Shown here in pieces: positions 172 through 59,863 of a DNA stretch of 64,000 nt. The stretch is taken from the NCBI RefSeq assembly GCF_030013595.1, contig NZ_CP122768.1; one strand, 5' to 3'. The stretch is from Escherichia coli. GTDB lineage: Bacteria; Pseudomonadota; Gammaproteobacteria; Enterobacterales; Enterobacteriaceae. Numbering within the stretch: position 1 is the first letter of the stretch; every line of letters starts with the position of its first letter. Both the position numbers and the translations under genes were made by a program. The notes beneath the pieces were generated by a model. That model was not told the DNA's origin, did not search any database, and was given only the letters and a program-made list of their open reading frames with translations.

Positions 172-585
172 TTAACTGCCACGATAGGTTGAATACCCAT
201 ATTGGCTAAGTAATAAAGGCACATGATAATGCTCGTTCACTTTATTGATATGAAATTCAACGGGGATCTCAGGGAAGAAACTTTCAAGATTTTGTTTCTT
301 GAAATAGTCCCCGGTTTTAAATACGACACGGTAATCGCCCGTAGTTGCAGTTTGCTCGGGCCACAGTGCCTTAATTCGTCCATCCTTATCTGTTTTGGCG
401 GTATTAAGTTGTAACCAGCCGTTATCCGCTTTCTTTTCAAGAGTGACTGTCACGTCGGCAGCGGGTTTTCCTGTTTGCTGGTTCAAAATGTGCACGCTAA
501 GAATGTTTTGTTGTGCAGCATAGACCAAAGAAGGTAATGAAAATGCAGCCGTTACTACGGAGAGTACTAAATAACGCTTTAACAT
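172..585 (-). CDS. hiuH: 5-hydroxyisourate hydrolase, transthyretin-like periplasmic protein
   Basis: 137-aa ORF with a signal peptide (..SLVYAAQQ) and the C-terminal YRGS motif of transthyretin-related proteins; recognised as YedX/HiuH. Confidence 0.92.
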
Positions 586-28835: not shown

Positions 28836-30037
28836 GCGATCTCCTTAGCAGTCTGCGGTGCCGCACGGAGGAAGAAGCGTTTTTCCCAGCCGATAATCAA
28901 CATCAGCGCAGCAAACAACAGCAAATATGTCACCAGCAGGCCACCCATCGGACCAAAGGTTTTCAGTAGGTTGATTTTGTCCCAGTCGGTGGCCAGCGCC
29001 GGAGCGAAATCATCCCAGTAGTACGCCAGAATCGTTGAGCCGATCACGTTGCCCAGACCGACCCACCAGTAGTGCACCTGGCCTTCTACCGCGCGGTACA
29101 TCCAGCCGGTTTCGCAGCCGCCTGCCAGCACGATGCCAAAACCAAACAGTAAACCACCAATTACCGCGTTTGGTCCTGCCCACATGATTTTGGGTTCAAC
29201 GCCTAACTGTACGTAACTGAAGATCCCGATGGCACTTACCGCCATACCGATAATGATTGCTTTCGCCATATGGGTACGTCCGGTGATCCACATATCGCGG
29301 AACGCCGAAGTAAAGCAGATTTGCGCACGTTCAATCAGTAAACCAAAGCCGACGCCAAACAGCATTGCCAGCCCCAGTTTGGGCTGGTTCATCGCCGTCA
29401 GCAGCGCCCAGCCCAGCATGCCGAAAAAGACCAGCATCCCGAGACGAAAACGACGCCGCGCCTGATCCGGTTTTTGCGTCAGCGGCGAGGCGGCAGAAAC
29501 TTTCTGCATTTTCACGGGAATACGGAAGATGGGCAGCAGGGTAAAGCGCGCGCCAAACCATGAACCAATGGCAGTGGCGATGGCAAAGAACCAGGCGTGC
29601 AGCGAGAACTGAGGAATGCCGGTAAAGAACGCCGCCAGGTTACAGCCCATTGCCAGACGCGCGCCAAAACCGGCGATAATGCCGCCAATGATGGCCTGCA
29701 TAATGCGGATACGGCTGCGCGGCATGCGTAGTTTGATATTGTTGGCCCACAGCGCTGCGGCAAAGCAGCCGCCAAACATACCGAGGATCATCATCCCGTC
29801 GATGCGGGTTAATGGCGATCCTTCCAGATGGATAATTTTAAAGTAACCCCACTCTTCAGCATGGACGCCAAACAGCTGCAGGAGCTGACCGCCCCAACGG
29901 GTAAATTCACCCGTGACAGCCCAAAAGGTGCCAGTAATGCCAAAATAGTAAGTGGAGAGAATACCCGCCGCGATGACCGCAGGGATGGGTGCCCAGAATT
30001 TAATCAACCAGGCGTGTTTGAATTGCTGCCATGACAT
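28832..30037 (-). CDS. yedE: YedE/FdhT-type sulfur/selenium transporter
   Basis: 401 aa polytopic membrane protein, overlapping yedF by ATGA. Confidence 0.9.
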   Translation of the reverse strand: MSWQQFKHAWLIKFWAPIPAVIAAGILSTYYFGITGTFWAVTGEFTRWGGQLLQLFGVHAEEWGYFKIIHLEGSPLTRIDGMMILGMFGGCFAAALWANNIKLRMPRSRIRIMQAIIGGIIAGFGARLAMGCNLAAFFTGIPQFSLHAWFFAIATAIGSWFGARFTLLPIFRIPVKMQKVSAASPLTQKPDQARRRFRLGMLVFFGMLGWALLTAMNQPKLGLAMLFGVGFGLLIERAQICFTSAFRDMWITGRTHMAKAIIIGMAVSAIGIFSYVQLGVEPKIMWAGPNAVIGGLLFGFGIVLAGGCETGWMYRAVEGQVHYWWVGLGNVIGSTILAYYWDDFAPALATDWDKINLLKTFGPMGGLLVTYLLLFAALMLIIGWEKRFFLRAAPQTAKEIA

Positions 30038-30223
30038 GAATGTAGCCTCTGAACTCAGAAGGTTTGAAACAAGAGTCGCGAATCATACATCATGCACATT
30101 TATTTTCGGGGTAATAATTCACAAAAATAATAGTTAGATCAAATTTCTCTCTGAACCTGGAAAGGCTGGCGACATCAGGGCTTTAATGCCACAATCCTCT
30201 TTTCTTCTCATGCAGGACGAATG

Positions 30224-30637
30224 ATGAAAAAACTCGCAATTGCAGGCGCGCTCATGTTGCTGGCGGGCTGTGCCGAAGTCGAAAACTATAACAATGTCGT
30301 GAAAACCCCCGCGCCGGACTGGCTGGCGGGCTACTGGCAGACCAAAGGGCCGCAACGTGCGCTGGTCAGTCCGGAAGCGATAGGCAGCCTGATTGTCACT
30401 AAAGAGGGCGATACCCTCGATTGCCGTCAGTGGCAGCGGGTGATTGCCGTGCCGGGTAAATTGACATTGATGTCTGATGATCTCACTAACGTTACCGTAA
30501 AACGTGAGCTGTACGAGGTTGAGCGTGACGGTAACACCATTGAGTACGATGGTATGACGATGGAGCGTGTGGATCGCCCGACGGCAGAGTGTGCCGCCGC
30601 GCTGGATAAAGCGCCGTTACCGACGCCACTGCCGTAA
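30224..30637 (+). CDS. yedD: Lipoprotein YedD
   Basis: MKKLAIAGALMLLAGC contains a lipobox; 137 aa from 30224. Confidence 0.85.
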   Translation: MKKLAIAGALMLLAGCAEVENYNNVVKTPAPDWLAGYWQTKGPQRALVSPEAIGSLIVTKEGDTLDCRQWQRVIAVPGKLTLMSDDLTNVTVKRELYEVERDGNTIEYDGMTMERVDRPTAECAAALDKAPLPTPLP

Positions 30638-30670
30638 TGAAATCTCCCCGGCTTGCCGCCGGGGATGAAT

Positions 30671-32158
30671 TTAAATCACCTCTTCGATAACCCACACGCT
30701 GACGCTGCCGCCGTTGCAAAAGAAGGTCGCTTCGCCGTTTTCGTCAGTCACTACGCTCTCTTGCCGGTTCCCCAGAAAATCACGCCAGGTTTTATTGCCG
30801 TAATTCTCTCCCAGATGAATGGTTTTTTCGCCATCATCCCCGTTCGACATGACCACCACGCAGCCGGGATATTCGTCAGTGCCACTGCGGCTAAAGGCAA
30901 TGCAGTTCGGATGGTCGAAAAATAACGTCTGTACACCGTGGGCGAAACGCTGACGGGCGAGAATTAACTCATCAAGCTGTTCGATTATTGGCATATCTAT
31001 CGGATAGGTTTGCCCGTCACCACCGACATCTTCGTAATGCGCACCGTAGAGGTCCGGATAGAACACCGAAGGAACGCCATTTTCCCGCAACAAAATTAGA
31101 GCATACGCCAGCGGTTTAAACCACGGTTCGACCGGCGCTTCGAGGGCTTGCAACGGTTGGGTGTCATGATTGGCAACGAGGGTTACGGCGTGGAAAGGAT
31201 CGGCTTCCACTAATGTACCCGTGAAAATCTGCGTCATGTCGTAGTCGCGCCCCATGCGCGATGCTTCATGGAATTTCATCTGCAGCGGCGCATCAAACAG
31301 CATGGTTTTGCCTTCCACCTGATCAATATACGTTTGCAGTTTATCGACTTCATGCGACCAGTATTCAGCCACAATAAATAGCGGCTTTGGTGCAACTTCC
31401 TGTACGTGTTCGATCCACTCTTTATAAAACCACGCCGGAATATGTTTGACCGCATCAAGACGAAAACCGTCGCATTGCGTTTGTTCCATCACCCAGCGCG
31501 CCCAGTATTTAATCTCTTCCGTCACGGCATGATTGCGGAAATCGATATTCTCGCCCATCAGGTAATCGAAATTACCGAGTTCATCATCAACCTGATCGTT
31601 CCAGCCTTCGCCGGTGTAGTCGTTAACAATTTTAAAAATGCCATCTTCATCAGGGTTTTCGATATGGTCGATACCGCTAAAACATTTAAAATCCCAGATA
31701 AACTGCGAGTATTGCCCGGCACGTGCGGGGAAGGTGTAACGCGTCCAGCCTTCGCACTCAATGATTTCTTCGTCAATTTGCGTACGATCGTCAGCATTTA
31801 CACGCTGCACGCGAATAGCTTCTTTTTCATCCGCGCCCATTTTGTGATTGACTACCACGTCCAGCAGCACCGCAATGTCATTACGTTTCAGAGCGTCAAT
31901 GGCGGCCAGCAGTTGTGTTTTATCGCCATATTTAGTAGGGATGCTGCCTTTCTGATCAAACTCGCCTAAATCAAATAAATCATAGGAGTCGTAGCCGACC
32001 GAATACCCGCCCGATGCGCCTTTATAGGCGGGCGGCAACCAGACCATATTGATACCAATATCATTAAAACCGTCGGCGCGCTCGGCCAGTTCAGGCCAGA
32101 GCTTACCGCCTTCCGGGTAATACCAGTGAAAACATTGTAACAGCGTGGGATTACGCAT
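30671..32158 (-). CDS. amyA: Cytoplasmic alpha-amylase AmyA (GH13)
   Basis: 495 aa with GH13 motifs [15 protein letters not shown] and FVANHD. Confidence 0.95.
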
Positions 32159-46565: not shown

Positions 46566-46652
46566 GCCCGGATGGTGGAATCGGTAGACACAAGGGATTT
46601 AAAATCCCTCGGCGTTCGCGCTGTGCGGGTTCAAGTCCCGCTCCGGGTACCA
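46566..46652 (+). tRNA. leuZ: tRNA-Leu (anticodon TAA), class II with a long variable arm
   Basis: 87-nt GCCCGGATGGTGGAATCGGTAGACACAAGGGATTTAAAATCCCTCGGCGTTCGCGCTGTGCGGGTTCAAGTCCCGCTCCGGGTACCA. Confidence 0.97.
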
Positions 46653-46782: not shown

Positions 46783-47826
46783 TCATTTTCTCTGGCCACC
46801 AACTACGGGCACTACTTTAACTTTTCGGTCATATGCTGCTGTCTGTCGTGGGTTCTTATGCCCGGAAATTGCTTGCTTCTCTTCCAGGCTGCCTTCCAGA
46901 TCAGAGATACCTTTTGCTTTCAGATCATGAAATGTGAAGTCTATTTGCAGATGAGGATATTTTTCCTGTGCTGCCGCTTTGACATCACGCCAACGAGAGT
47001 TAAAACCATCACGGGTGTACTTGCCTCCGGTAGTTTGATGAATCACAAACAGGCTACTGATTCCCGGTTTTAATGGCAGAGAACGAGCCAGAGCTATCGC
47101 TTTCTGCAGACGAGGCGACCAGGCTTTGATTTGCTTAACGCCGGTTTTTCCCTGACGAATGTAGATCCCGGAATCGAACAGCTGGTCTTTCTGTAATGAA
47201 AGTACATCACTCTGTCTGGCCACACATAAGTAGGCAATCTCCATTGCCACGCGAACAACATCAGGAGACACTTCATAAACGGCCTGATATTCTTCATCCG
47301 TAATATAACGTTCGCGTGCTGTCTCTTTAAACTGCTTAACTCCCTGACAAGGATTCCTCTGGACATAACCTCGTTCATAACCCCAACGGAATACCCTGGA
47401 CATAAAGCTTTTTTCCCTATTTGCCTGAGTTCGGCTTGATAAACCGCGTTGATCCATATAGCGCCGAATATGTTCAGGTTTGATTTTATCCGGGTCGATC
47501 TTCCCGAAGACAGGCAGAACTTTTCCGGAATATTTTGTGTAGTCTTTCCTGGTTTCGACTGCCAAATCCATAAAATCAGGGGAGGTCATGAATTGTTCCG
47601 CGAGCGCCTGAAAAGTATTTCTTTCTTTTTCGTCACCGACCGCTTTTTCATATGCCAGCCATACGGCTGATCGTGGCGCATCCAATGCGCACAGGCGTAT
47701 CGCTTTGTTATCTTTATTCCTGAATTCGTAGGCCGCTTTGCCCTGGTAAACACGAGGCGGCATCCAGTTATCTGCTGGGTTCTTTCTCTTTCCGGCCATT
47801 AAATATTGCTCCAAAATCAGGTTCAT
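46783..47826 (-). CDS. int: Tyrosine-recombinase phage integrase
   Basis: 347 aa. The C-terminal catalytic region has R (CVARQSDV), HDLK and GH...Y (AISGHKNPRQTAAYDRK). It is adjacent to a tRNA locus. Confidence 0.9.
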   Translation of the reverse strand: MNLILEQYLMAGKRKNPADNWMPPRVYQGKAAYEFRNKDNKAIRLCALDAPRSAVWLAYEKAVGDEKERNTFQALAEQFMTSPDFMDLAVETRKDYTKYSGKVLPVFGKIDPDKIKPEHIRRYMDQRGLSSRTQANREKSFMSRVFRWGYERGYVQRNPCQGVKQFKETARERYITDEEYQAVYEVSPDVVRVAMEIAYLCVARQSDVLSLQKDQLFDSGIYIRQGKTGVKQIKAWSPRLQKAIALARSLPLKPGISSLFVIHQTTGGKYTRDGFNSRWRDVKAAAQEKYPHLQIDFTFHDLKAKGISDLEGSLEEKQAISGHKNPRQTAAYDRKVKVVPVVGGQRK

Positions 47827-48240: not shown

Positions 48241-48423
48241 TTATTTCTGATTAGGCGTAATCAGTTCTGGTGGGGGGAATGCCGATTTCTCCCGCGTGAC
48301 CTTAATGTTTTCTGGCAGGTGTAGCCCAAGTTCGCAGCGACTCCGTGCTTCAATAATGCCATTGGTACCATCGGCAAGTACCAGGTGAACCGCGTCACCA
48401 CGCTTTAATGTGAGTTTAAGCAT
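48241..48423 (-). CDS. Small beta-rich protein, CsrA-like or AbrB/SpoVT-like (60 aa)
   Basis: MLKLTLKRGDAVHLVL...ELGLHLPENIKVTREK aligns by eye with CsrA [15 protein letters not shown]...[16 protein letters not shown]. The assignment is tentative. Confidence 0.4.
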   Translation of the reverse strand: MLKLTLKRGDAVHLVLADGTNGIIEARSRCELGLHLPENIKVTREKSAFPPPELITPNQK

Positions 48424-48992: not shown

Positions 48993-51214
48993 GCTGTTTG
49001 CTCCTGTGCTGCGGTGAGGGCGGTGAGGCGTTCGGTTTTGATTTCATTCAAACGGCGCAGGCGCGAACCAAGATAAGTTGAATACTCCTTATCACCTTTG
49101 GATTCTGCGGCCTTGCGGTGAACTTCTACTTCCCGCGCAATAAGGCCATAGACTTTATTAACTTCATTGGGGGTTACGGCTGCAGCCAGTGTTTTGGCAA
49201 CACCTGAGAGTCGTTCATCCAGTTCTTCACGCAGTCGGGTAGCATCCTCTGCTTTCTCGCTTGCCTTCTTAATACTGTATTCTGTATTCAGCTCGGCGGT
49301 GTAGGCACTATCGTTATGCATATCCATATAAACATCTGCCGCAAATCCCAGATGAGATAGTGCTTTGACGGTGGCATCAGTAAGAGACTTTTTGGAGGCC
49401 TCTTTTTCCATTACCAGTGCCCCTTTGTTATTTTTTGATATGTAATCCGTGTGGCCATATGACGGAATAAATCCTTTCACTCCGTTCCAGATGTACCAGA
49501 GATCTATCCGGATGGTGTGTACTGACAGGCAGAACAGGGAACCGTCAGCATCCCTGACAGGTTTTTGTCCAATAATTTTCCCTGTCTGATCCTGTATAGG
49601 TTCAAGTAATGGCACACCGCGATCCACTCGCTCCTCCTTGATTTCAACTCCCCAACCAATGCCTTCCATTCCCAGCACTTCAGTCGCACGCATCAAAATA
49701 TATTGTGCGCGTATGGAGTGCAGTCCTGCACCGTAATCATTATGTGTGACATACGCAGGATCGGTCCGCTGAACGCGATTCCAGATAGCCAAATTTGCTT
49801 TGCTCTGGTCATCATTCATTGCTGACAGATAATGCTCCATGCGAATTGATGCAGTTTTTTCCTCGGCATGGGGCGGCTCAACCAGCGCGTCAACGTTCTG
49901 CACCAGGTCTTTTACCTGCTCGCTAAGTTTTTCTTGTGGAGGAGTCTCTTCTGCCGGGGTAATAGCTGCAGGTTCCCTCTGTGATACGGCGTTATTTTCA
50001 GGTACGTCATACACATGGCGAGGCGTGACAAACTGCTCACGCAACTGCTGCAAACTACGTTCTCCAGCATTTGCTGCTTCGCTTTTTTCGCCCTGATTTG
50101 AGGGTGTTTCTGACATCATTCCATCAATTGAGAATCGCCCGCCGCCGTGGTTGGTGACTTTTACATCATCCTTTGGTGCTGTTTCCTTTGGCTTCTCTTC
50201 AACAGCATTTGCATCACGCTGCCCGTTAGCTTGCAGCCAGTTGTCGATGTGACTGCGCAGGGATTGCGGGAAGTGGTACGTGTCTTTTGCGGGGGCGCTC
50301 TGAATAACACCGAATACTGATGCGCGGTCATAGGCAAGGATCTGATCCGTTGTGCGCAAGGCCATTGACCAGCGTTTAAAATCCTCCCGATCCTGGCTGA
50401 TTATTTCGTCTGCCGCTTTCAGGACGCTGGGGGTGATTTTTTCCGGGCCAACGGGTAACAGGGCGCAGGCAATTTCACGATCCAGTGTGGCGTGAGTCTG
50501 TTGGTAAGGACGTGCGGATGCTGTTTCTGGTTTTACCTCCGGCAGCATTTCATCGCGTTTACCGGGATTCTCTACCCATTTTTTTATAAATTTGGAGATA
50601 GTCCAACTGGTCGGGTTTTGTTCCTGGGTATCGCAACTTGCCAAAATTGCATGTACCAGATTATTCAATCCAGCAATATGCATGTACTCGATGGGCTTAC
50701 ACGCCACCATGGCATCAAGAACGATGCGGTTAAACGCGTCAACCTCATCCTCACTGTCAGTATCACTGTTGTCGAGCATCTCCAGGTATTCACGCGTCTG
50801 CGCAAGCAATTCACTGTCGACTTCGTTGGCGTCGTGGCTGAACAGCAGGACGGCGGCGAAGCGTTCACGAGCCGGCAGTTTCATCAGGTCGTTAACCTGT
50901 GCGATATCTGCTGAACCGCTATCTGAATCAGCGGGGGTGTTAACTACCCATTTTTCGCCATCAAAACTGTGTTCTGTGGCAAACGTCTCATCAAACTCAC
51001 CGACGCCAGGGCGCGGTTGGCCCGGGGCATCTTCCCAGATTTTAGGTTTGAAATAGTTGTCGCCGTGGTCAGGGTAGGCTTCCCACAATTTGCCGATGAT
51101 GATGTTCTCGGCAACTTTTTTGTTAGGGGCGTCGATGGCGATGGCCAGCGCCGGGATCGCGCCGTTTTTGAGCGCGCCTTTTTTCGCTTCTAACAAGCCG
51201 TTAAAGATGGTCAT
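48989..51214 (-). CDS. Large (741 aa) phage protein with a C-terminal Rad52/Sak-like single-strand annealing domain
   Basis: The C-terminal ~250 aa (GLHSIRAQYILMRATEVLGMEGIGWG...KKSLTDATVKALSHLGFAADVY) resemble Rad52-family SSAPs. The acidic N-terminal ~470 aa are unassigned. Conserved RBS present. Confidence 0.5.
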   Translation of the reverse strand: MTIFNGLLEAKKGALKNGAIPALAIAIDAPNKKVAENIIIGKLWEAYPDHGDNYFKPKIWEDAPGQPRPGVGEFDETFATEHSFDGEKWVVNTPADSDSGSADIAQVNDLMKLPARERFAAVLLFSHDANEVDSELLAQTREYLEMLDNSDTDSEDEVDAFNRIVLDAMVACKPIEYMHIAGLNNLVHAILASCDTQEQNPTSWTISKFIKKWVENPGKRDEMLPEVKPETASARPYQQTHATLDREIACALLPVGPEKITPSVLKAADEIISQDREDFKRWSMALRTTDQILAYDRASVFGVIQSAPAKDTYHFPQSLRSHIDNWLQANGQRDANAVEEKPKETAPKDDVKVTNHGGGRFSIDGMMSETPSNQGEKSEAANAGERSLQQLREQFVTPRHVYDVPENNAVSQREPAAITPAEETPPQEKLSEQVKDLVQNVDALVEPPHAEEKTASIRMEHYLSAMNDDQSKANLAIWNRVQRTDPAYVTHNDYGAGLHSIRAQYILMRATEVLGMEGIGWGVEIKEERVDRGVPLLEPIQDQTGKIIGQKPVRDADGSLFCLSVHTIRIDLWYIWNGVKGFIPSYGHTDYISKNNKGALVMEKEASKKSLTDATVKALSHLGFAADVYMDMHNDSAYTAELNTEYSIKKASEKAEDATRLREELDERLSGVAKTLAAAVTPNEVNKVYGLIAREVEVHRKAAESKGDKEYSTYLGSRLRRLNEIKTERLTALTAAQEQTA

Positions 51215-51244
51215 TGGTCTTTCCTCATTACAGGTCAGTGGTCT

Positions 51245-51565
51245 TTAGTAGGGGATTTCATCAGTATCTGGCGTGTATTCGATGCAAAGTAACTGCTGGA
51301 TTTTGTCATCGATAGCAGCAATACGCTGTTGGGCGTCGGCGACTGTTTTCTGTTTTTGCTCATACAGCTGCTCGACCTGCAAACCGATGATGTCGATTGG
51401 CTGGGGCTGGTTGACGGTAATTTCAATTTCGCGGCTTTCCAGAAGGATGTACCTGTCTGGAAAATTTTTTGACATATCAACAGTCGCAACAAGCAGCTTT
51501 TCGTGGCTGAAAGTTGAAGTTGCATAATTAATAAAGAGTGTTACTGGGATGGTGCGCGCTTCCAT
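51245..51565 (-). CDS. Hypothetical phage protein (106 aa)
   Basis: AAGGAG lies 5 nt upstream of the ATG. It is the first ORF after the ORF-free leader. Confidence 0.55.
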   Translation of the reverse strand: MEARTIPVTLFINYATSTFSHEKLLVATVDMSKNFPDRYILLESREIEITVNQPQPIDIIGLQVEQLYEQKQKTVADAQQRIAAIDDKIQQLLCIEYTPDTDEIPY

Positions 51566-52413
51566 AGCGACTCCTTGGTGATGTATACTCGGGACCGATC
51601 AGCGAATATTGATCAGCTTCCATAGCGTCAGTGTCGTTGGTCTTTCCTCATCACAAGTTTGGTCACTTGTGATAAATCCGAATGGTTTGGTCGCCGTTCG
51701 GGGTAACTGGCCCGCCTTGTGCGGGTCTTTTGCTATCTAAAGGGTGCCGGTTACGTTTCCGGCGTCGTTATGTTTCCATCACGACCGTACGGGGCTGGTC
51801 TTTCCTGTTTTGAGCTGGTCAGGCTCATGGTCAACGCTGGTCAGGCGTGGTACTTCCTCCGGTCTTTCCCTGGTGTCACGCTGCGGGTTTGGCCTCTCCT
51901 GTTGGGGACTCAGGCACAGCGATAAAACCTGGCTGTGTGAAAAAATGGCCCATCGTGCGGACTGGGCAAAGGCTAAACACAGCAAATTGATGATGGGCGC
52001 CCGGAATCGAACCGGGTAACGGGCAGGGAGTTCCCGTTAAACACCTGTTCACCACAACCGGGAGCGCACTCCGCCATTTCAAAATTTAACGACAAAGCTC
52101 AAAGTTGAGTCGATGAAGTGCGCTCTCGTGTTGTAGCCAGGACTCTTCCCTGGTGGTCACACCGTATCGCCTTGATGGTGAATCAATCGCTCATACCTGG
52201 CTGTGGCTTGCACATTCCGGCTAGCTGCTATGGAGACAACGCGTTAAGGCTCCGCTTCCATCCAGACCGCTTCGACACATGTGCCATATGCCGGCGAAGT
52301 CTTTCCCTCTGTCATCGTGTTGGCGCCGACGCGCAAAATTTGATGCCGTCTTTCCGGCTGTCAGAACGTGTTTCTGAACAACTGCCGCTGGGTAAGCGTT
52401 GTTGATGAAAGTG

Positions 52414-52442
52414 ACTTTACAATTTGTATTTGTAATGGTCAA
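52414..52442 (-). promoter_or_regulatory. Candidate PL: TTGACC-17 nt-TAAAGT with a 19-bp operator filling the spacer
   Basis: The minus strand reads TTGACCattacaaatacaaattgTAAAGT. The operator TTACAATTTGTATTTGTAA (52417..52435) recurs at OR. Confidence 0.65.
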
Positions 52443-52561
52443 CGTATTTTTAAAAAATAATTTGTAGTTAGGGGCAAAAAAATATTCACTGTGTAAAGGT
52501 GTTTTTGTGTTAGGGGGAAAGTTGCATGCCAGCAGCGGCTGGCCTGGAAATTTGAACTGAA

Positions 52562-52975
52562 CTATTTTGTCTGGTTTTTGGCTTCAAGTAGTTCTTTTAG
52601 CAGTAGATCGAAGTGCTCTCTTTTTTCTTTTAGCTCATTGATTAATTTATTTTTTTCGCTCTCAGGCAGTCCTCTGAATAGTTGCAGTAGAGCCTGTTCT
52701 TGCGGGGTTAGTTCTTGATTGTAATTACCCGGGTGTAGCGTGGATTCATCCAAATATTCACCTTCATTCATGAAGAAAAAATGAACAGGGTATCCGGTCA
52801 CTTTTGCTAGCTTGTCTAATTTATCTTTTCTTGGAGTTACCCCATTACACCATGCCTGAACTGATTGAGCCGTAACCCCAATATGGCGAGCTAACTCAGA
52901 TTGAGACCAGCCTAAGTCTTTTAGAATCCGTTGTAGTCGGCTAGCAAAAGCCATGTTTTTCGTTTTTGTGTTCAT
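52562..52975 (-). CDS. cI-like XRE-family HTH repressor (no S24 peptidase domain visible)
   Basis: The HTH is LGWSQSELARHIGVTAQSVQAWCNG. It is divergent from the cro-like gene. The start is uncertain (TTG 52990, ATG 52975 or ATG 52954). Confidence 0.8.
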   Translation of the reverse strand: MNTKTKNMAFASRLQRILKDLGWSQSELARHIGVTAQSVQAWCNGVTPRKDKLDKLAKVTGYPVHFFFMNEGEYLDESTLHPGNYNQELTPQEQALLQLFRGLPESEKNKLINELKEKREHFDLLLKELLEAKNQTK

Positions 52976-53009
52976 ACCGTAAGGATACAAGGTTTAATTG
53001 TAGGGAGCA

Positions 53010-53047
53010 TTGCAAATATAATTTGTAATTACAGTTATGATTTGTAA
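53010..53047. promoter_or_regulatory. OR: two abutting 19-bp operators overlapping a TATAAT -10 box
   Basis: TTGCAAATATAATTTGTAA (53010..53028) and TTACAGTTATGATTTGTAA (53029..53047). TATAAT lies at 53017..53022, facing the cro-like gene. Confidence 0.65.
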
Positions 53048-53073
53048 TGATGGCGCGGACACAAGGAGTCCAT

Positions 53074-53304
53074 ATGGATAAACAACTGCAAGACAAAATT
53101 CTTTCCGTAATGAGTCAATCCGAGTTAGGGCGGCGATTAGGGAAAAAACCACAAACGGTAAGCCTCTGGTTCAAAGGAAGGGTTCCCGGTGAAGAGGTTT
53201 TGCGCACATCTGAAGCTCTTGAATGGCGCGTGACCCCCCATGATCTTAGACCGGATCTTTACCCAAACCCAGATGACAGCTTGCCTAAAACGAAAGCAGC
53301 TTAA
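53074..53304 (+). CDS. Cro/YdaS-like HTH protein
   Basis: ATG at 53074 lies 5 nt after AAGGAG. SQSELGRRLGKKPQTVSLWFKGRVP...DLRPDLYPNP resembles the YdaS/Cro family. Confidence 0.75.
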   Translation: MDKQLQDKILSVMSQSELGRRLGKKPQTVSLWFKGRVPGEEVLRTSEALEWRVTPHDLRPDLYPNPDDSLPKTKAA

Positions 53305-53362
53305 CTGTTGGTGAGCCCCAAATCTGATTAAGCGTAATCAATTTTTAGCGACAGGAGACGCT

Positions 53363-53839
53363 ATGGAAAACCAAGAGGAATTACAAAAAGAGATTTTGAC
53401 CTGGGCGGCAAGGGCAGGGCAGGAACTCGTCACGATTGAAATCTGCCGGGCCTGGTTCAGTCAGGGACGCAATGATGAGTTGAGACTACATGAATTTGAG
53501 GACGCGGACGGCAATGTGGACTGGAGAGCCATCAACAACAATCGGCAGAAAATCTTTCGCTGGTTACGTGGCGAGACAACGGCGGCGCGCCGAAAAACTC
53601 AGGTGCTGGCCAGTGTGATGAAAGCCGTGCTACCCGCAGAACGGCGGGCGCGTCTGGAGTCGCCGGGCGATCCCGTTTTGCTGGCAACGCTGGCGGCAAA
53701 AGAAGGGGTGGAAGCGATTAACGCTGTACATCTCCACTTCGCGCCAGAGATAACTATTCAGGAAATTGACGAAGCAATAGCGGCGCTGGTAGCGACGCGA
53801 GGGGCAGTGATAAGCACTGCGCAAGGCCATCATGCATGA
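53363..53839 (+). CDS. YdaT-like (CII-like) regulator
   Basis: 158 aa. IFRWLRGETTAARRKTQVLASVMKAVLPAERRARL parallels Rac YdaT IYHRWLKGETKTQREKIQKLIPAILAILPRELRHRL, as I recall it. Confidence 0.6.
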   Translation: MENQEELQKEILTWAARAGQELVTIEICRAWFSQGRNDELRLHEFEDADGNVDWRAINNNRQKIFRWLRGETTAARRKTQVLASVMKAVLPAERRARLESPGDPVLLATLAAKEGVEAINAVHLHFAPEITIQEIDEAIAALVATRGAVISTAQGHHA

Positions 53840-53878
53840 GCGCCTGACCAGCGTTTAACTTATACCGAGGAAAGACCG

Positions 53879-54103
53879 ATGTTAAGACATATTGACCGCA
53901 TTACCTGGCGTAACGGCTGGCACCTGAATGGACGCCCGGCACATGTTGCAGAGATCCAACCTATTTTTGATGGGCGTATGGCTGCCGCGCTTTCGGTGTG
54001 GGAGCAGTATGAATCCAGGAAGGTCGAGTTGCGCGACAAAGGGCTGAGCAATGCGGACTATGAAGCCGGTTGTCGTCAGATAGCCGAAGCTCTGGAGATC
54101 TGA
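53879..54103 (+). CDS. Hypothetical phage protein (74 aa)
   Basis: Preceded by the conserved RBS CCGAGGAAAGACCGATG. Confidence 0.55.
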   Translation: MLRHIDRITWRNGWHLNGRPAHVAEIQPIFDGRMAAALSVWEQYESRKVELRDKGLSNADYEAGCRQIAEALEI

Positions 54104-56570: not shown

Positions 56571-56608
56571 CCACGCATGACCAGCGTGAAATAACCGAGG
56601 AAAGACCA

Positions 56609-57019
56609 ATGACCACCATTTCAGGCAAATTAGAGTACCCGTCGGACAAAGGACACATAGACGACGGTAAAAACTATCTCGACGTCATTTTGTGGAATAT
56701 GAACGCCGGGCCACGTGCGCGCACTCGTGCGGTTTTTGTACCAAGACCCAAAGCAGGCAATTTTTCAACACCAGCTCAGCCTGCCCGTCAGGCATCCGTA
56801 GCCGCAGCGCCAGCAGTGAAATGTAAGGGTAAAACGCACATCGGGATCGCGATTCGCAGAAATGGTGAGCGGCAAGTGAAACTCCACGAAACAGCGACAA
56901 CCTGGTGTGCTTCACCGCATGAAACTTACGACAAGATAACCGGGCAGCGCATTGGTGCGCCTGGTCGCTGTCGCCTGCTGTTGAGCTCCATCACTCCGAT
57001 AGAAAAGAAAGGGGCGTGA
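56609..57019 (+). CDS. Hypothetical phage protein (136 aa)
   Basis: Conserved RBS ACCGAGGAAAGACCAATG; no recognisable domain. Confidence 0.55.
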   Translation: MTTISGKLEYPSDKGHIDDGKNYLDVILWNMNAGPRARTRAVFVPRPKAGNFSTPAQPARQASVAAAPAVKCKGKTHIGIAIRRNGERQVKLHETATTWCASPHETYDKITGQRIGAPGRCRLLLSSITPIEKKGA

Positions 57020-58649: not shown

Positions 58650-58976
58650 ATGACTAAAAATACTCGTTTTTCCCCCGAAGTCCGTCAGCGGGCGATTCGT
58701 ATGGTTCTGGAAAGTCAGGATGAATATGACTCACAGTGGGCGGCAATTTGTTCCATTGCCCCAAAGATTGGCTGTACGCCGGAGACTCTGCGTGTCTGGG
58801 TTCGCCAGCATGAGCGGGATACCGGGGGCGGTGATGGTGGGCTCACCAGCGCTGAACGTCAGCGTCTGAAAGAGCTGGAACGTGAAAATCGTGAACTGCG
58901 CCGCAGTAACGATATCCTTCGCCAGGCTTCCGCTTATTTTGCGAAGGCGGAGTTCGACCGCCTCTGGAAAAAATGA
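58650..58976 (+). CDS. IS629 OrfA (HTH transposase N-terminal part)
   Basis: 108 aa, [33 protein letters not shown]..., recognised as IS629/IS1203 OrfA. An A-run (GGAAAAAATG) sits at its end for -1 frameshifting. Confidence 0.92.
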
Positions 58977-59863
58977 TGCCACTGCTGGATAAGCTGCGTG
59001 AGCAGTACGGGGTCGGACCGGTATGTAGCGAACTGCATATTGCCCCGTCAACGTATTACCATTGTCAGCAACAGCGACATCATCCGGATAAACGCAGTGC
59101 CCGTGCGCAGCACGATGACTGGCTGAAGAAAGAGATACAGCGCGTATACGATGAAAATCACCAGGTATACGGTGTGCGTAAAGTCTGGCGTCAGTTGTTA
59201 CGGGAAGGTATCAGAGTGGCCAGATGCACTGTGGCACGTCTCATGGCAGTTATGGGACTTGCCGGTGTTCTCCGGGGTAAAAAGGTCCGCACTACCGTCA
59301 GCCGGAAAGCCGTTGCCGCAGGCGACCGCGTAAACCGTCAGTTCGTGGCAGAACGACCTGACCAGCTGTGGGTGGCTGATTTTACTTACGTCAGCACATG
59401 GCAGGGCTTCGTCTATGTGGCGTTTATCATTGATGTGTTTGCCGGATACATCGTGGGGTGGCGGGTCTCATCGTCTATGGAAACGACATTCGTGCTGGAT
59501 GCGCTGGAGCAGGCGTTGTGGGCCCGTCGTCCGTCTGGCACCATCCATCACAGCGATAAAGGCTCTCAGTATGTGTCACTGGCCTATACGGAGCGACTAA
59601 AAGAAGCCGGATTACTGGCATCAACAGGGAGTACAGGCGACTCGTATGACAACGCGATGGCTGAGAGCATCAATGGTCTTTACAAAGCGGAGGTAATACA
59701 CCGTAAGAGCTGGAAAAAACGTGCAGAAGTGGAACTGGCCACACTAACGTGGGTGGACTGGTATAACAATCGACGATTGCTGGGAAGGCTGGGCCATACT
59801 CCTCCGGCAGAAGCAGAAAAAGCTTATTATGCTTCCATCGGAAACGATGATCTGGCAGCCTGA
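58973..59863 (+). CDS. IS629 OrfB (DDE catalytic domain)
   Basis: 296 aa with the DDE motif context (WVADFTYV..., HSDKGSQY..., [10 protein letters not shown]). Confidence 0.92.

Follow-up and report, generated by a model that had tools for sequence, protein, structure and literature searches.

A candidate structured RNA family in the gene-less stretch ahead of an early leftward prophage operon and across enterobacterial phages

Within a 64,000-nucleotide (nt) stretch of Escherichia coli DNA (contig NZ_CP122768.1; in the following called the window), about 0.85 kb (51566..52413) separate the immunity region of a prophage from its early-left operon. What does this stretch contain, if not genes? 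The original prediction, made from the sequence letters alone, considered a structured leader or antitermination RNA, the scars of deleted genes and, very speculatively, a GGA-motif RNA acting together with a CsrA-like protein. Its starting observations hold: the promoter TTGACC-17-TAAAGT (52442..52414, minus strand) is present and is the only sigma70-like site that a promoter scan found in 51200..53400, and the stretch contains only short overlapping open reading frames (ORFs) of 30-95 amino acids (aa) on both strands, none belonging to a PHROG family. The structured-RNA reading was borne out more strongly than had been proposed, the first ~480 nt consisting of conserved RNA modules with covariation. 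The central one is a folded RNA of ~165 nt on the minus strand (52294..52130), in the following called the core. On balance, we favor reading the stretch as a noncoding head of the early leftward operon, which would be a polycistronic RNA cassette and not an untranslated spacer.

The core is present in a single copy in the window and matches the covariance model of this family, R1, over its full length (model positions 1-160) with 130.9 bits (E=2e-41). Family members score between 120 and 169 bits, range from 150 to 201 nt in length and share six helices and a pseudoknot, a structure that was derived by eye and then tested by covariation. Helix P1 (CGGCAUAU/AUGUGCCG) carries the loop GGCAC. 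P2 encloses P3, a variable hairpin with a large loop that starts with UUCCUUG. The junction is an invariant 21-nt sequence, GGUAGCCGGAAUGUGCAAGCC. P4 pairs GCC with GGC, the P5 loop YUCACCA forms the pseudoknot with a downstream GGUG, and P6 has the loop GAAGAGA or GAAGAGU. The R1 match of the window includes P1, P2, P4, P5, P6 and the conserved junctions.

The fold is firmly supported. In 42 diverse cores, 94.7% of the cells were paired, compared to at most 51% with the partners slid, and 13 pairs were altered on both sides. For 80 distinct model-aligned cores the respective values are 95.3% and at most 47%, with compensatory changes in 13 of the 25 pairs. In neither set did any of 500 shuffles reach the observed covariation; a covariation analysis on homologs was one of the checks suggested in the original prediction. 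The pseudoknot covaries as well, from UCACC:GGUGU to UAACC:GGUUU and to GAACC:GGUUU, and the P3 stems are wholly different between lineages. We assigned the core to the minus strand of the window because its frequent G.U pairs (for example UG at two positions, in 76 and in 78 of 80 sequences) turn into A.C mismatches when the opposite strand is read, because all 47 tRNAs found near cores are co-oriented with the core, and because promoter and terminator lie on the same strand.

The core might alternatively be part of a region encoding small proteins, represented in the window by a 95-aa plus-strand or 73-aa minus-strand ORF over the core. A stop-free frame, mostly antisense, indeed runs through 72 of the 80 distinct cores, and the records of phage mEp460 and a few other phages annotate a hypothetical protein at this place. 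However, the lengths of the cores populate every class modulo 3 (33/29/18), the column variability lacks third-position periodicity (0.175/0.22/0.179), a PHROG search with the short ORFs of the stretch matched no family, and the conservation tracks base pairs, not codons. Because of the spread lengths, the lack of codon periodicity and the absence of a PHROG match, we conclude that the core is not protein-coding; small proteins are a scarcely credible explanation of this region.

The core is not restricted to this prophage. A BLAST comparison with phage records showed the whole 0.85 kb to be 72% identical to the matching position in phages BUCT708/709, and a core segment of ~170 nt also matched unannotated gaps in Uetakevirus genomes (SPN1S, Tyrion, PAT1), in Klebsiella phages, in SopranoGao and in the P1-like phage SJ46. 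The exact 17-mer GCCGGAATGTGCAAGCC from the core was found in more than 120 viral contigs, with 96 distinct variants. Carriers include P1, P7, D6, RCS47, Stx2c phages, mEp460, cdtI, phiV10, TL-2011b and many lambdoid phages. Of 5426 complete E. coli genomes, at least 959 (about one in six) carry the core, on chromosomes as well as on P1-like plasmids, and the carriers include a prophage common in ST131-type strains. Copy number is uniform, with one core in each of 82 loci, just as R1 has one match in the 64-kb window.

To obtain an independently ascertained set, we searched one genome per species with a pattern not derived from the 17-mer and confirmed the matches by R1. This yielded 23 model-confirmed matches, 22 of them in Enterobacterales from 11 genera. 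The remaining one lies on a 1.7-kb contig labeled as a Bacillota metagenome-assembled genome, which is probably misbinned. Eight non-enteric pattern matches had no match to R1 and were discarded as chance. In this set, too, the 21-nt junction shows essentially no variation.

In P1 (NC_005856), the core is located at 71023..71204 between trnI and ban and therefore within the C1-controlled Pban operon. According to the P1 record, this operon also holds a "dicF-like region" (292..393 in our P1 locus, L129), trnA and trnT. The order is Pban, dicF-like region, tRNAs, trnI, core, ban.

Under nearly all core matches, the phage records annotate nothing, and a few list a hypothetical protein. Likewise, nearly all matches listed for RefSeq E. 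coli have no feature, and two plasmid records (H142, H143) call a hypothetical protein. ORFs annotated in this way run across the core in mEp460 (L131, 2943..3311, minus strand, antisense), in JL22 and PhiR63_1 and in these two plasmid records. They are probably mis-calls because they belong to no PHROG family and the frame is not conserved.

Searching Rfam 15 (cmscan, E<=10) with three divergent representatives, SPN1S, SJ46 and the window, we found no family for the core; the sole match on the window core, Zeta-pan (17.5 bits, E=3.9), is at chance level. Both at the gathering scores and at E<=10, the sequences of the window, SPN1S, SJ46 and the relatives L001 and L094 gave only sub-threshold matches to RprA, DicF, tRNA-Sec and a transfer-messenger RNA (tmRNA) T-arm. 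The Rfam and ARAGORN scans recommended in the original prediction hence gave no family for the core and no tRNA call in the region. An eye-level resemblance had suggested mimicry of 16S rRNA, an idea that we dropped as the Rfam small-subunit rRNA model did not match at E<=10. A full-text literature search for the invariant junction sequence returned no paper, and a keyword search for an earlier description of the core returned nothing relevant, with incomplete coverage, such that a prior description is possible. Judged by sequence comparison, the core is a new RNA family. P1, Stx2c-converting and epsilon15-like phages and roughly a sixth of the complete E. coli genomes carry this folded RNA, with its invariant 21-nt junction, as an unannotated element that annotation pipelines leave blank or overlay with spurious hypothetical proteins.

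Which other modules accompany the core in the window? Two leader hairpins, AACAAC...GUUGUU (52403..52377) and UCAGAA-ACACG-UUCUGA (52377..52361), both on the minus strand and recognized by sequence comparison, belong to a conserved segment that begins close to the transcription start and is shared by the window, L041, L107, L001, L023 and L052 despite differing immunity regions. One A-to-G change in them preserves a G.U pair. Promoter and operator sequences vary among these heteroimmune relatives, while the transcribed leader stays conserved. The second hairpin is the stem-loop that had been noted next to a boxA-like motif; the stem-loop is conserved in the heteroimmune relatives, but the boxA-like CGCUUACC reads CGCACUAACC in the L001 group.

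Next to the leader hairpins, a small hairpin, GCC-GGAAAGAC-GGC (52345..52358, minus strand), displays GGAAAGAC at a module junction; it reads GCCC-GGAAAGAC-GGGC in the L001 group. Exactly at this hairpin, L107, a relative with 98% identity, contains 0.5 kb of inserted DNA in which two small ORFs converge. Placed after the leader hairpins and before the core (4461..4869 in L107), the insert holds a 74-aa ORF without a family and a convergent, overlapping 77-aa ORF belonging to phrog_20080, a layout that resembles a moron or a toxin-antitoxin pair. Another hairpin, GCGC-GUCG-GCGC (52323..52334, minus strand), covaries in its stem with UUCGG-GUCG-CCGAA in the L001 group and retains its loop. Just 5' of the core, 33 of 33 nt (52291..52323) match a type I-E CRISPR spacer of E. 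coli NZ_CP133811.

The core is followed by a long helix, ACAAC(A)CGAGAGCGCACU / AGUGCGCUCCCGGUUGU, enclosing a loop of ~46 nt (52054..52134, minus strand). The 9-bp long-range pairing described in the original prediction is real and forms the center of this helix, which extends over 17-18 bp (52134..52117 with 52070..52054). Compensatory variants occur at other loci, namely GAGAGCAUUGG/UCAGUGCUCUC and AAAAGAGCGCUG/UAGUGCUCUUUU, and one locus has a 21-bp form.

Next in line is a decayed tRNA-like unit (51991..52055, minus strand). It consists of a 5' GUGGUGA, an anticodon-arm-like ACGGG/CCCGU and the T-arm CCCGG-UUCGAUU-CCGGG, a hairpin predicted from the start and found at 52016..52000. We rejected this unit as a tRNA: only the T-arm is canonical, four of the seven acceptor pairs can form, ARAGORN called neither a tRNA nor a tmRNA in the region, and the best match in the Rfam clan, tRNA-Sec, reached 19.3 bits compared to a gathering score of 47. 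At other loci, the same slot holds tRNA-Arg(UCU) or intact tRNA-like RNAs of the form GUGGUGA...CACCAC.

The proximal part ends with an RprA-like 3' module, AAUUUGCUGUGUUUAGCCUUU, followed by the intrinsic terminator GCCCAGUCCGCACGAUGGGC-CAUUUUUU (51940..51988, minus strand), identified by Rfam and a terminator scan. Against RprA (RF00034), the window module reaches 34 bits (E=0.075) and that of L001 (3389..3508, minus strand) 50.2 bits (E=3.7e-5) with the whole model aligned; both alignments contain the conserved 3' stretch of RprA and its Rho-independent terminator. RprA itself has nearly the same single-stranded 3' segment, UUGCUGUGUKUAGYCUUUGCCC, and nearly the same terminator hairpin. In contrast to RprA, the module is phage-borne and operon-internal, and its middle hairpin is replaced by the tRNA-like insert in the window or by AAUCACG..CGUGAU elsewhere. 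In RprA, the known seed sits in this middle hairpin (PMC5861431). With a gathering score of 70, neither match qualifies as RprA proper.

Comparison of many phage flanks, including SPN1S and ST512-phi13.3, revealed a recurrent order: a repressor-controlled promoter, the core, the long helix, a cargo slot, an AAUCACG..CGUGAU hairpin and a terminal small RNA (sRNA) module with a terminator. In these cassettes, the long helix pairs GCAAC-N-GAGAGCAYUG with CAGUGCUCUC-N-GUUGU over 18-21 bp, again with compensatory variants. The slot contains tRNA-Arg(UCU), a tRNA-like RNA, or nothing. The tRNA-like RNAs reach from GUGGUGAAU to CACCAC, some of them with a canonical T-loop and a terminal CCA. Members include the window unit, L094 (2679..~2800, plus strand), L013, L019, L005 and many others. 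Their layout runs from GUGGUGAAU through a D-arm-like GCGC-AGGCUGAU-GCGC, a variable part of 40-130 nt and a T-arm-like GCCGG-AGAUCAGCA-CCGGC to CACCAC-AA; those of L094, L108 and L112 have the canonical UUCGAUU T-loop and the end CACCAC-A-CCA. ARAGORN called none of them, and Rfam gave only a 13-bit match to the tmRNA T-arm. The tRNA-like RNAs filling the slot after the core form a second conserved RNA family.

The terminal module comes in two flavors, RprA-like or DicF-like, the latter matching DicF with 22.7 bits (E=0.017) in L094 (2839..2888, plus strand). The phage modules appear to be versions of sRNA scaffolds from the host or from prophages in which the seed hairpin is changed. The dicBF operon of the Qin prophage offers a likeness, as an sRNA is embedded there in a repressor-controlled early prophage operon and DicF is released from the polycistronic transcript by processing. 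It differs in that the terminal module of the window is RprA-like, not DicF-like, and in that dicBF has no counterpart of the ~165-nt core.

In the lambdoid phages, the cassette starts right after cI, in the order cI, promoter, core. Across 105 distinct contexts, 37 have a sigma70-like promoter within 200 nt upstream of the core, at a median distance of ~54 nt and in five cases of 6-13 nt. In an ORF-based survey of contexts, spurious ORFs lying over the RNA cassettes caused noise. In L004 and L006, the homologous helix module lies upstream of the core, which is therefore bracketed in the same way as tRNAs are. The comparison defines a modular noncoding cassette of core, punctuation helix, tRNA or tRNA-like slot and RprA- or DicF-like sRNA behind repressor-controlled early promoters.

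For the window, we propose the following sequence of events. Transcription from the repressor-controlled promoter at 52442..52414 would first yield the two small leader hairpins and next the compactly folded core (52294..52130). The 18-bp helix, the decayed tRNA-like unit and the RprA-like sRNA ending at the terminator (51967..51940) would follow. Long helices and tRNA-like units would serve as punctuation for cuts by RNase III, RNase P and RNase E, and these cuts would set free the core and the sRNA, each as a discrete stable RNA. The terminator would pass only part of the transcripts into the genes for recombination, excision and integrase. The released core would act in trans on a conserved host component, as suggested by the 21-nt junction, which is invariant although the surrounding phage proteins are unrelated.

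Known RNAs provide partial parallels to such processing. The species 1 and 2 RNAs of phage T4, the E. coli RtT RNA and 3'ETS-leuZ, the 3' external transcribed spacer (ETS) of the E. coli Gly-Cys-Leu operon and a known sRNA sponge, are non-tRNA RNAs from tRNA units that are released by the tRNA-processing machinery; we know of no function assigned to the two T4 RNAs. They share no sequence or model similarity with the core, which did not match RtT although this RNA is in Rfam, and the core, unlike them, also occurs without a nearby tRNA, as in the L001 group. The c4 antisense RNA of P1 and P7 is a folded regulatory RNA of ~77 nt that is cut from an operon transcript by host enzymes. It resembles the core as a folded RNA of P1-like phages within an operon transcript, but it belongs to the immI region and to an Rfam family of its own, whereas the unrelated core lies in the ban operon.

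The covariation, the strand, the single-copy, promoter-linked position and the order of modules with tRNAs in the slot elsewhere are direct observations, and several others weigh against the proposed cassette of released RNAs. Minimum-free-energy z-scores are modest (-2.0, -2.3), do not favor the minus strand and decide neither structure nor strand. The window has a degenerate tRNA-like unit, which the 72% identical relatives of the L001 group lack, and the RprA-like matches stay below the gathering score. P1-like phages have the core ~2.3 kb away from the promoter and immediately ahead of ban, a position that would also fit a cis-acting leader. Finally, the window core reads GCUAGCC (52220..52222, minus strand) instead of GGUAGCC at an otherwise invariant G. 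Its junction is GCUAGCCGGAAUGUGCAAGCC compared to GGUAGCCGGAAUGUGCAAG(C/U)C in the family, a single G-to-C change at a position where 41 aligned sequences have UG and one has the other form, and all sequences listed for the independently ascertained set keep this G as well. Because a C replaces the invariant junction G, the window copy may be impaired. Most E. coli copies are 99.4% identical to it, and ~446 E. coli genomes hold a copy one base off, the one-base difference being counted anywhere along the copy in both cases. The element would be accessory in the laboratory: the P1 ban operon is non-essential under laboratory conditions, and CRISPR interference against P1 tciA, trnI and ban was tolerated (PMC10695390); assuming that this knock-down is polar, the core would be dispensable, too.

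Tentatively, and with clearly less confidence than for the cassette as such, we suggest that the core represents a novel type of phage RNA directed at a conserved host machine, a portable module among otherwise unrelated enterobacterial phages. In one version, the core may be an RNA-only modifier of RNA polymerase and take the place of N in lambdoid phages that lack it; it would then explain how these phages pass internal terminators. In the other version, it may be a decoy or inhibitor of tRNA-directed host enzymes or defense nucleases, which would fit its linkage to phage tRNA-Arg(UCU), tRNA-Ile2, tRNA-like RNAs and sRNA mimics and would make it a new phage counter-measure. A function of the core can be tested directly in P1 or in an inducible E. 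coli prophage.

The main rival places the action in cis, with the core as an RNA-only processive antiterminator or anti-pausing element. Like put of phage HK022, an RNA that binds the beta' zinc-binding domain of RNA polymerase and suppresses termination, it would modify the polymerase starting at the early promoter, permit read-through of the internal terminator(s) into the early-left genes and replace N. The core resembles put as a folded phage RNA just past a repressor-controlled early promoter of an N-less lambdoid phage, upstream of terminators (PMC9378689). It is promoter-proximal in the 37 of 105 contexts mentioned above, and many lambdoid cores lie right after cI, at the position of lambda nutL/N and HK022 putL. 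No N-like ORF follows it. In the window, the intrinsic terminator (51967..51940) stands between the core and the first gene, and the promoter scan found no sigma70-like site between this terminator and that gene; in SPN1S and L006, ORFs begin immediately past the cassette terminators. RNA processing would not exclude such a role, since put is active without tethering to the transcript (PMC9378689).

Nevertheless, the testable defining features of put all fail. The put RNA is ~70 nt long, has two stem-loops and is present as putL and putR in both early operons (PMC9378689), whereas the core is ~165 nt long with six helices and a pseudoknot, occurs as a single copy with none in the rightward operon, and is linked to tRNAs in P1-like and epsilon15-like phages. 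With its filters switched off, R1 gave at best 8.9 bits in the early region of HK022 (24000-32000), and we rejected homology on this basis. The epsilon15-like cassette, moreover, is a tiny stand-alone operon amid late genes, the P1 core is located ~2.3 kb from Pban, and the cassette terminators often have weak U-tracts, such that leaky read-through needs no special factor. A lambda-type nut site was likewise discarded, as the boxA-like motif is not conserved and the first genes, encoding the 106-aa phrog_2479 protein and an exonuclease, include no N-like ORF. Of the suggestion of an N-less nut- or put-like leader, the absence of N thus stands, while the boxA-like motif and the membership in put do not. 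We regard the put-like cis element as rather unlikely and continue to favor the cassette of RNA modules.

Is the stretch instead mere decay, the remnants of deleted genes with no RNA function? This question concerns mainly the distal ~370 nt (51937..51566). Here, three RBS-like sequences GAGGAAAGACC (RBS, ribosome-binding site) and two CUGACCA hairpins, CGC-CUGACCA-GCG (51847..51835) and GAGC-CUGACCA-GCUC (51826..51812), occur on the minus strand without ORFs. The junction modules (51798..51937, minus strand) further comprise a hairpin CACAGC..GCUGUG and GGAAAGAC at 51869..51862 and 51805..51798. At the real junctions 53841-53879 and 56574-56609, the same motifs separate the stop codon from the start codon. 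The L001 group conserves them and bears additional copies. Closer to the first gene, the hairpin AUCACAAGU-GACCAA-ACUUGUGAU is followed by the RBS-like GAGGAAAGACC (51640..51672, minus strand). In L001, the motif at 51640 precedes the AUG of an annotated 38-aa ORF, whereas the window has ACG. Relatives differ in gene content and segments, too: L107 contains the inserted genes described above, and L052 and L064 replace the segment 52054..51706.

The repetition of junction motifs without ORFs, the start codon lost to ACG and the swapped segments make the distal part fit "junctions without genes". Its motifs would accordingly mark places where modules are gained and lost, and it is still built of conserved hairpins. 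The hairpin at 51649..51672, listed in the original prediction, is real; in the L001 group its stem is fully replaced (CCGUAGGG/CCCUACGG) with the GACCAA loop kept, and pairing maintained through complete stem replacement speaks against decay even here. The degenerate tRNA-like unit also fits decay. By contrast, the proximal ~480 nt are conserved across unrelated phages with compensatory changes, and no relative bears protein-coding genes that align across the stretch, the alignment check named in the original prediction. For 52413..51938, the covariation refutes decay. The idea of scars consequently applies to the distal ~370 nt only, and as an explanation of the whole stretch we consider it improbable.

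The four exact GGAAAGAC copies reported initially are present, and an unlisted fifth lies inside the interval at 51640..51647. The window holds ten copies compared to 1.9 expected, a number reached by none of 100 shuffles, and all ten are located within the prophage, co-oriented with genes. CGCCTGACCAGCGTT, also reported, lies at 51833..51847 (minus strand) and again at 53841 (plus strand) and, with two mismatches, at 56574 (plus strand), three occurrences in the window compared to 0.12 expected. The listed features are real and non-random, and "empty leader" and "scars alone" both fail as descriptions of the stretch.

Hairpins with a GACCA loop (CUGACCA, AUGACCA, GACCAA) and covarying stems recur 10-27 nt upstream of the standard RBS GAGGAAAGACC, at the real junctions 53841..53879 and 56574..56609 as well as in the gene-less leader at 51812..51847 and 51640..51672. 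From this arrangement, they look like a conserved intercistronic signal, for instance a protein or RNase site. The junction-motif region (51829..51872) matches another type I-E CRISPR spacer, of E. coli NZ_CP147535, with 95.5% identity over 44 nt.

These motifs also bear on the GGA idea, according to which the leader would be a sponge for an operon-encoded CsrA-like protein or for host CsrA. Five GGAAAGAC copies, sometimes in a hairpin loop, and 20 GGA on the minus strand compared to 8 on the plus strand would suit it. Yet GGAAAGAC is the ordinary RBS of the phage at its real genes, and the 20 GGA in 848 nt exceed the compositional expectation of 15.5 only 1.3-fold. The 60-aa ORF taken for CsrA-like (48241..48423) had no Pfam match and no BLASTP alignment to E. 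coli CsrA, and matched solely phrog_2482, a family of unknown function. With no cognate CsrA found, we rejected a CsrB-type sponge, which we deem highly improbable.

The remaining features concern the surroundings of the stretch. The window consists of enterobacterial chromosome followed by the prophage, which begins directly after a tRNA-Leu gene. On the chromosomal side, the ARAGORN and Rfam scans placed rseX, DsrA and the tRNA genes Gly-Cys-Leu (46.3-46.6 kb). The immunity region contains the gene of a cI-like helix-turn-helix repressor (52562..52990, minus strand; Pfam HTH_3), directly downstream of which the PL-like early promoter is located, a YdaS-like Cro (53047..53304, plus strand) and a YdaT/CII-like protein. 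The early-left genes encode the 106-aa phrog_2479 protein (51245..51565, minus strand), the 741-aa exonuclease, a Gp157/Gam-like protein, the 60-aa protein (48241..48423), a DUF4224 Xis-like protein and an ORF read as integrase.

A 31-aa upstream ORF (51528..51623, minus strand) overlaps the RBS and the start of the first of these genes. Since part of it also lies within the interval, at its 3' end, the description of this interval as ORF-free needs correction in this point. The ORF has variants of 48 aa (L107) and 38 aa (L001) and belongs to no PHROG family. On the opposite strand, a terminator-like hairpin, GGCCCGCC-UUGU-GCGGGUC-UUUU (51709..51727, plus strand), opposes the leftward operon and is conserved in the 72% identical L001 group; no plus-strand transcript that would need this terminator is evident.

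At the far end of the operon, the ORF read as integrase (46783..47826) starts ~130 nt past tRNA-Leu (46566..46652), the last gene of the Gly-Cys-Leu cluster, and the prophage insertion may alter or replace the 3'ETS-leuZ trailer. On the other side of the immunity region, an ALIL pseudoknot, the frameshift element of the IS3 family, matched with 119 bits at 58931..59047 (plus strand) and indicates an insertion sequence within the prophage.

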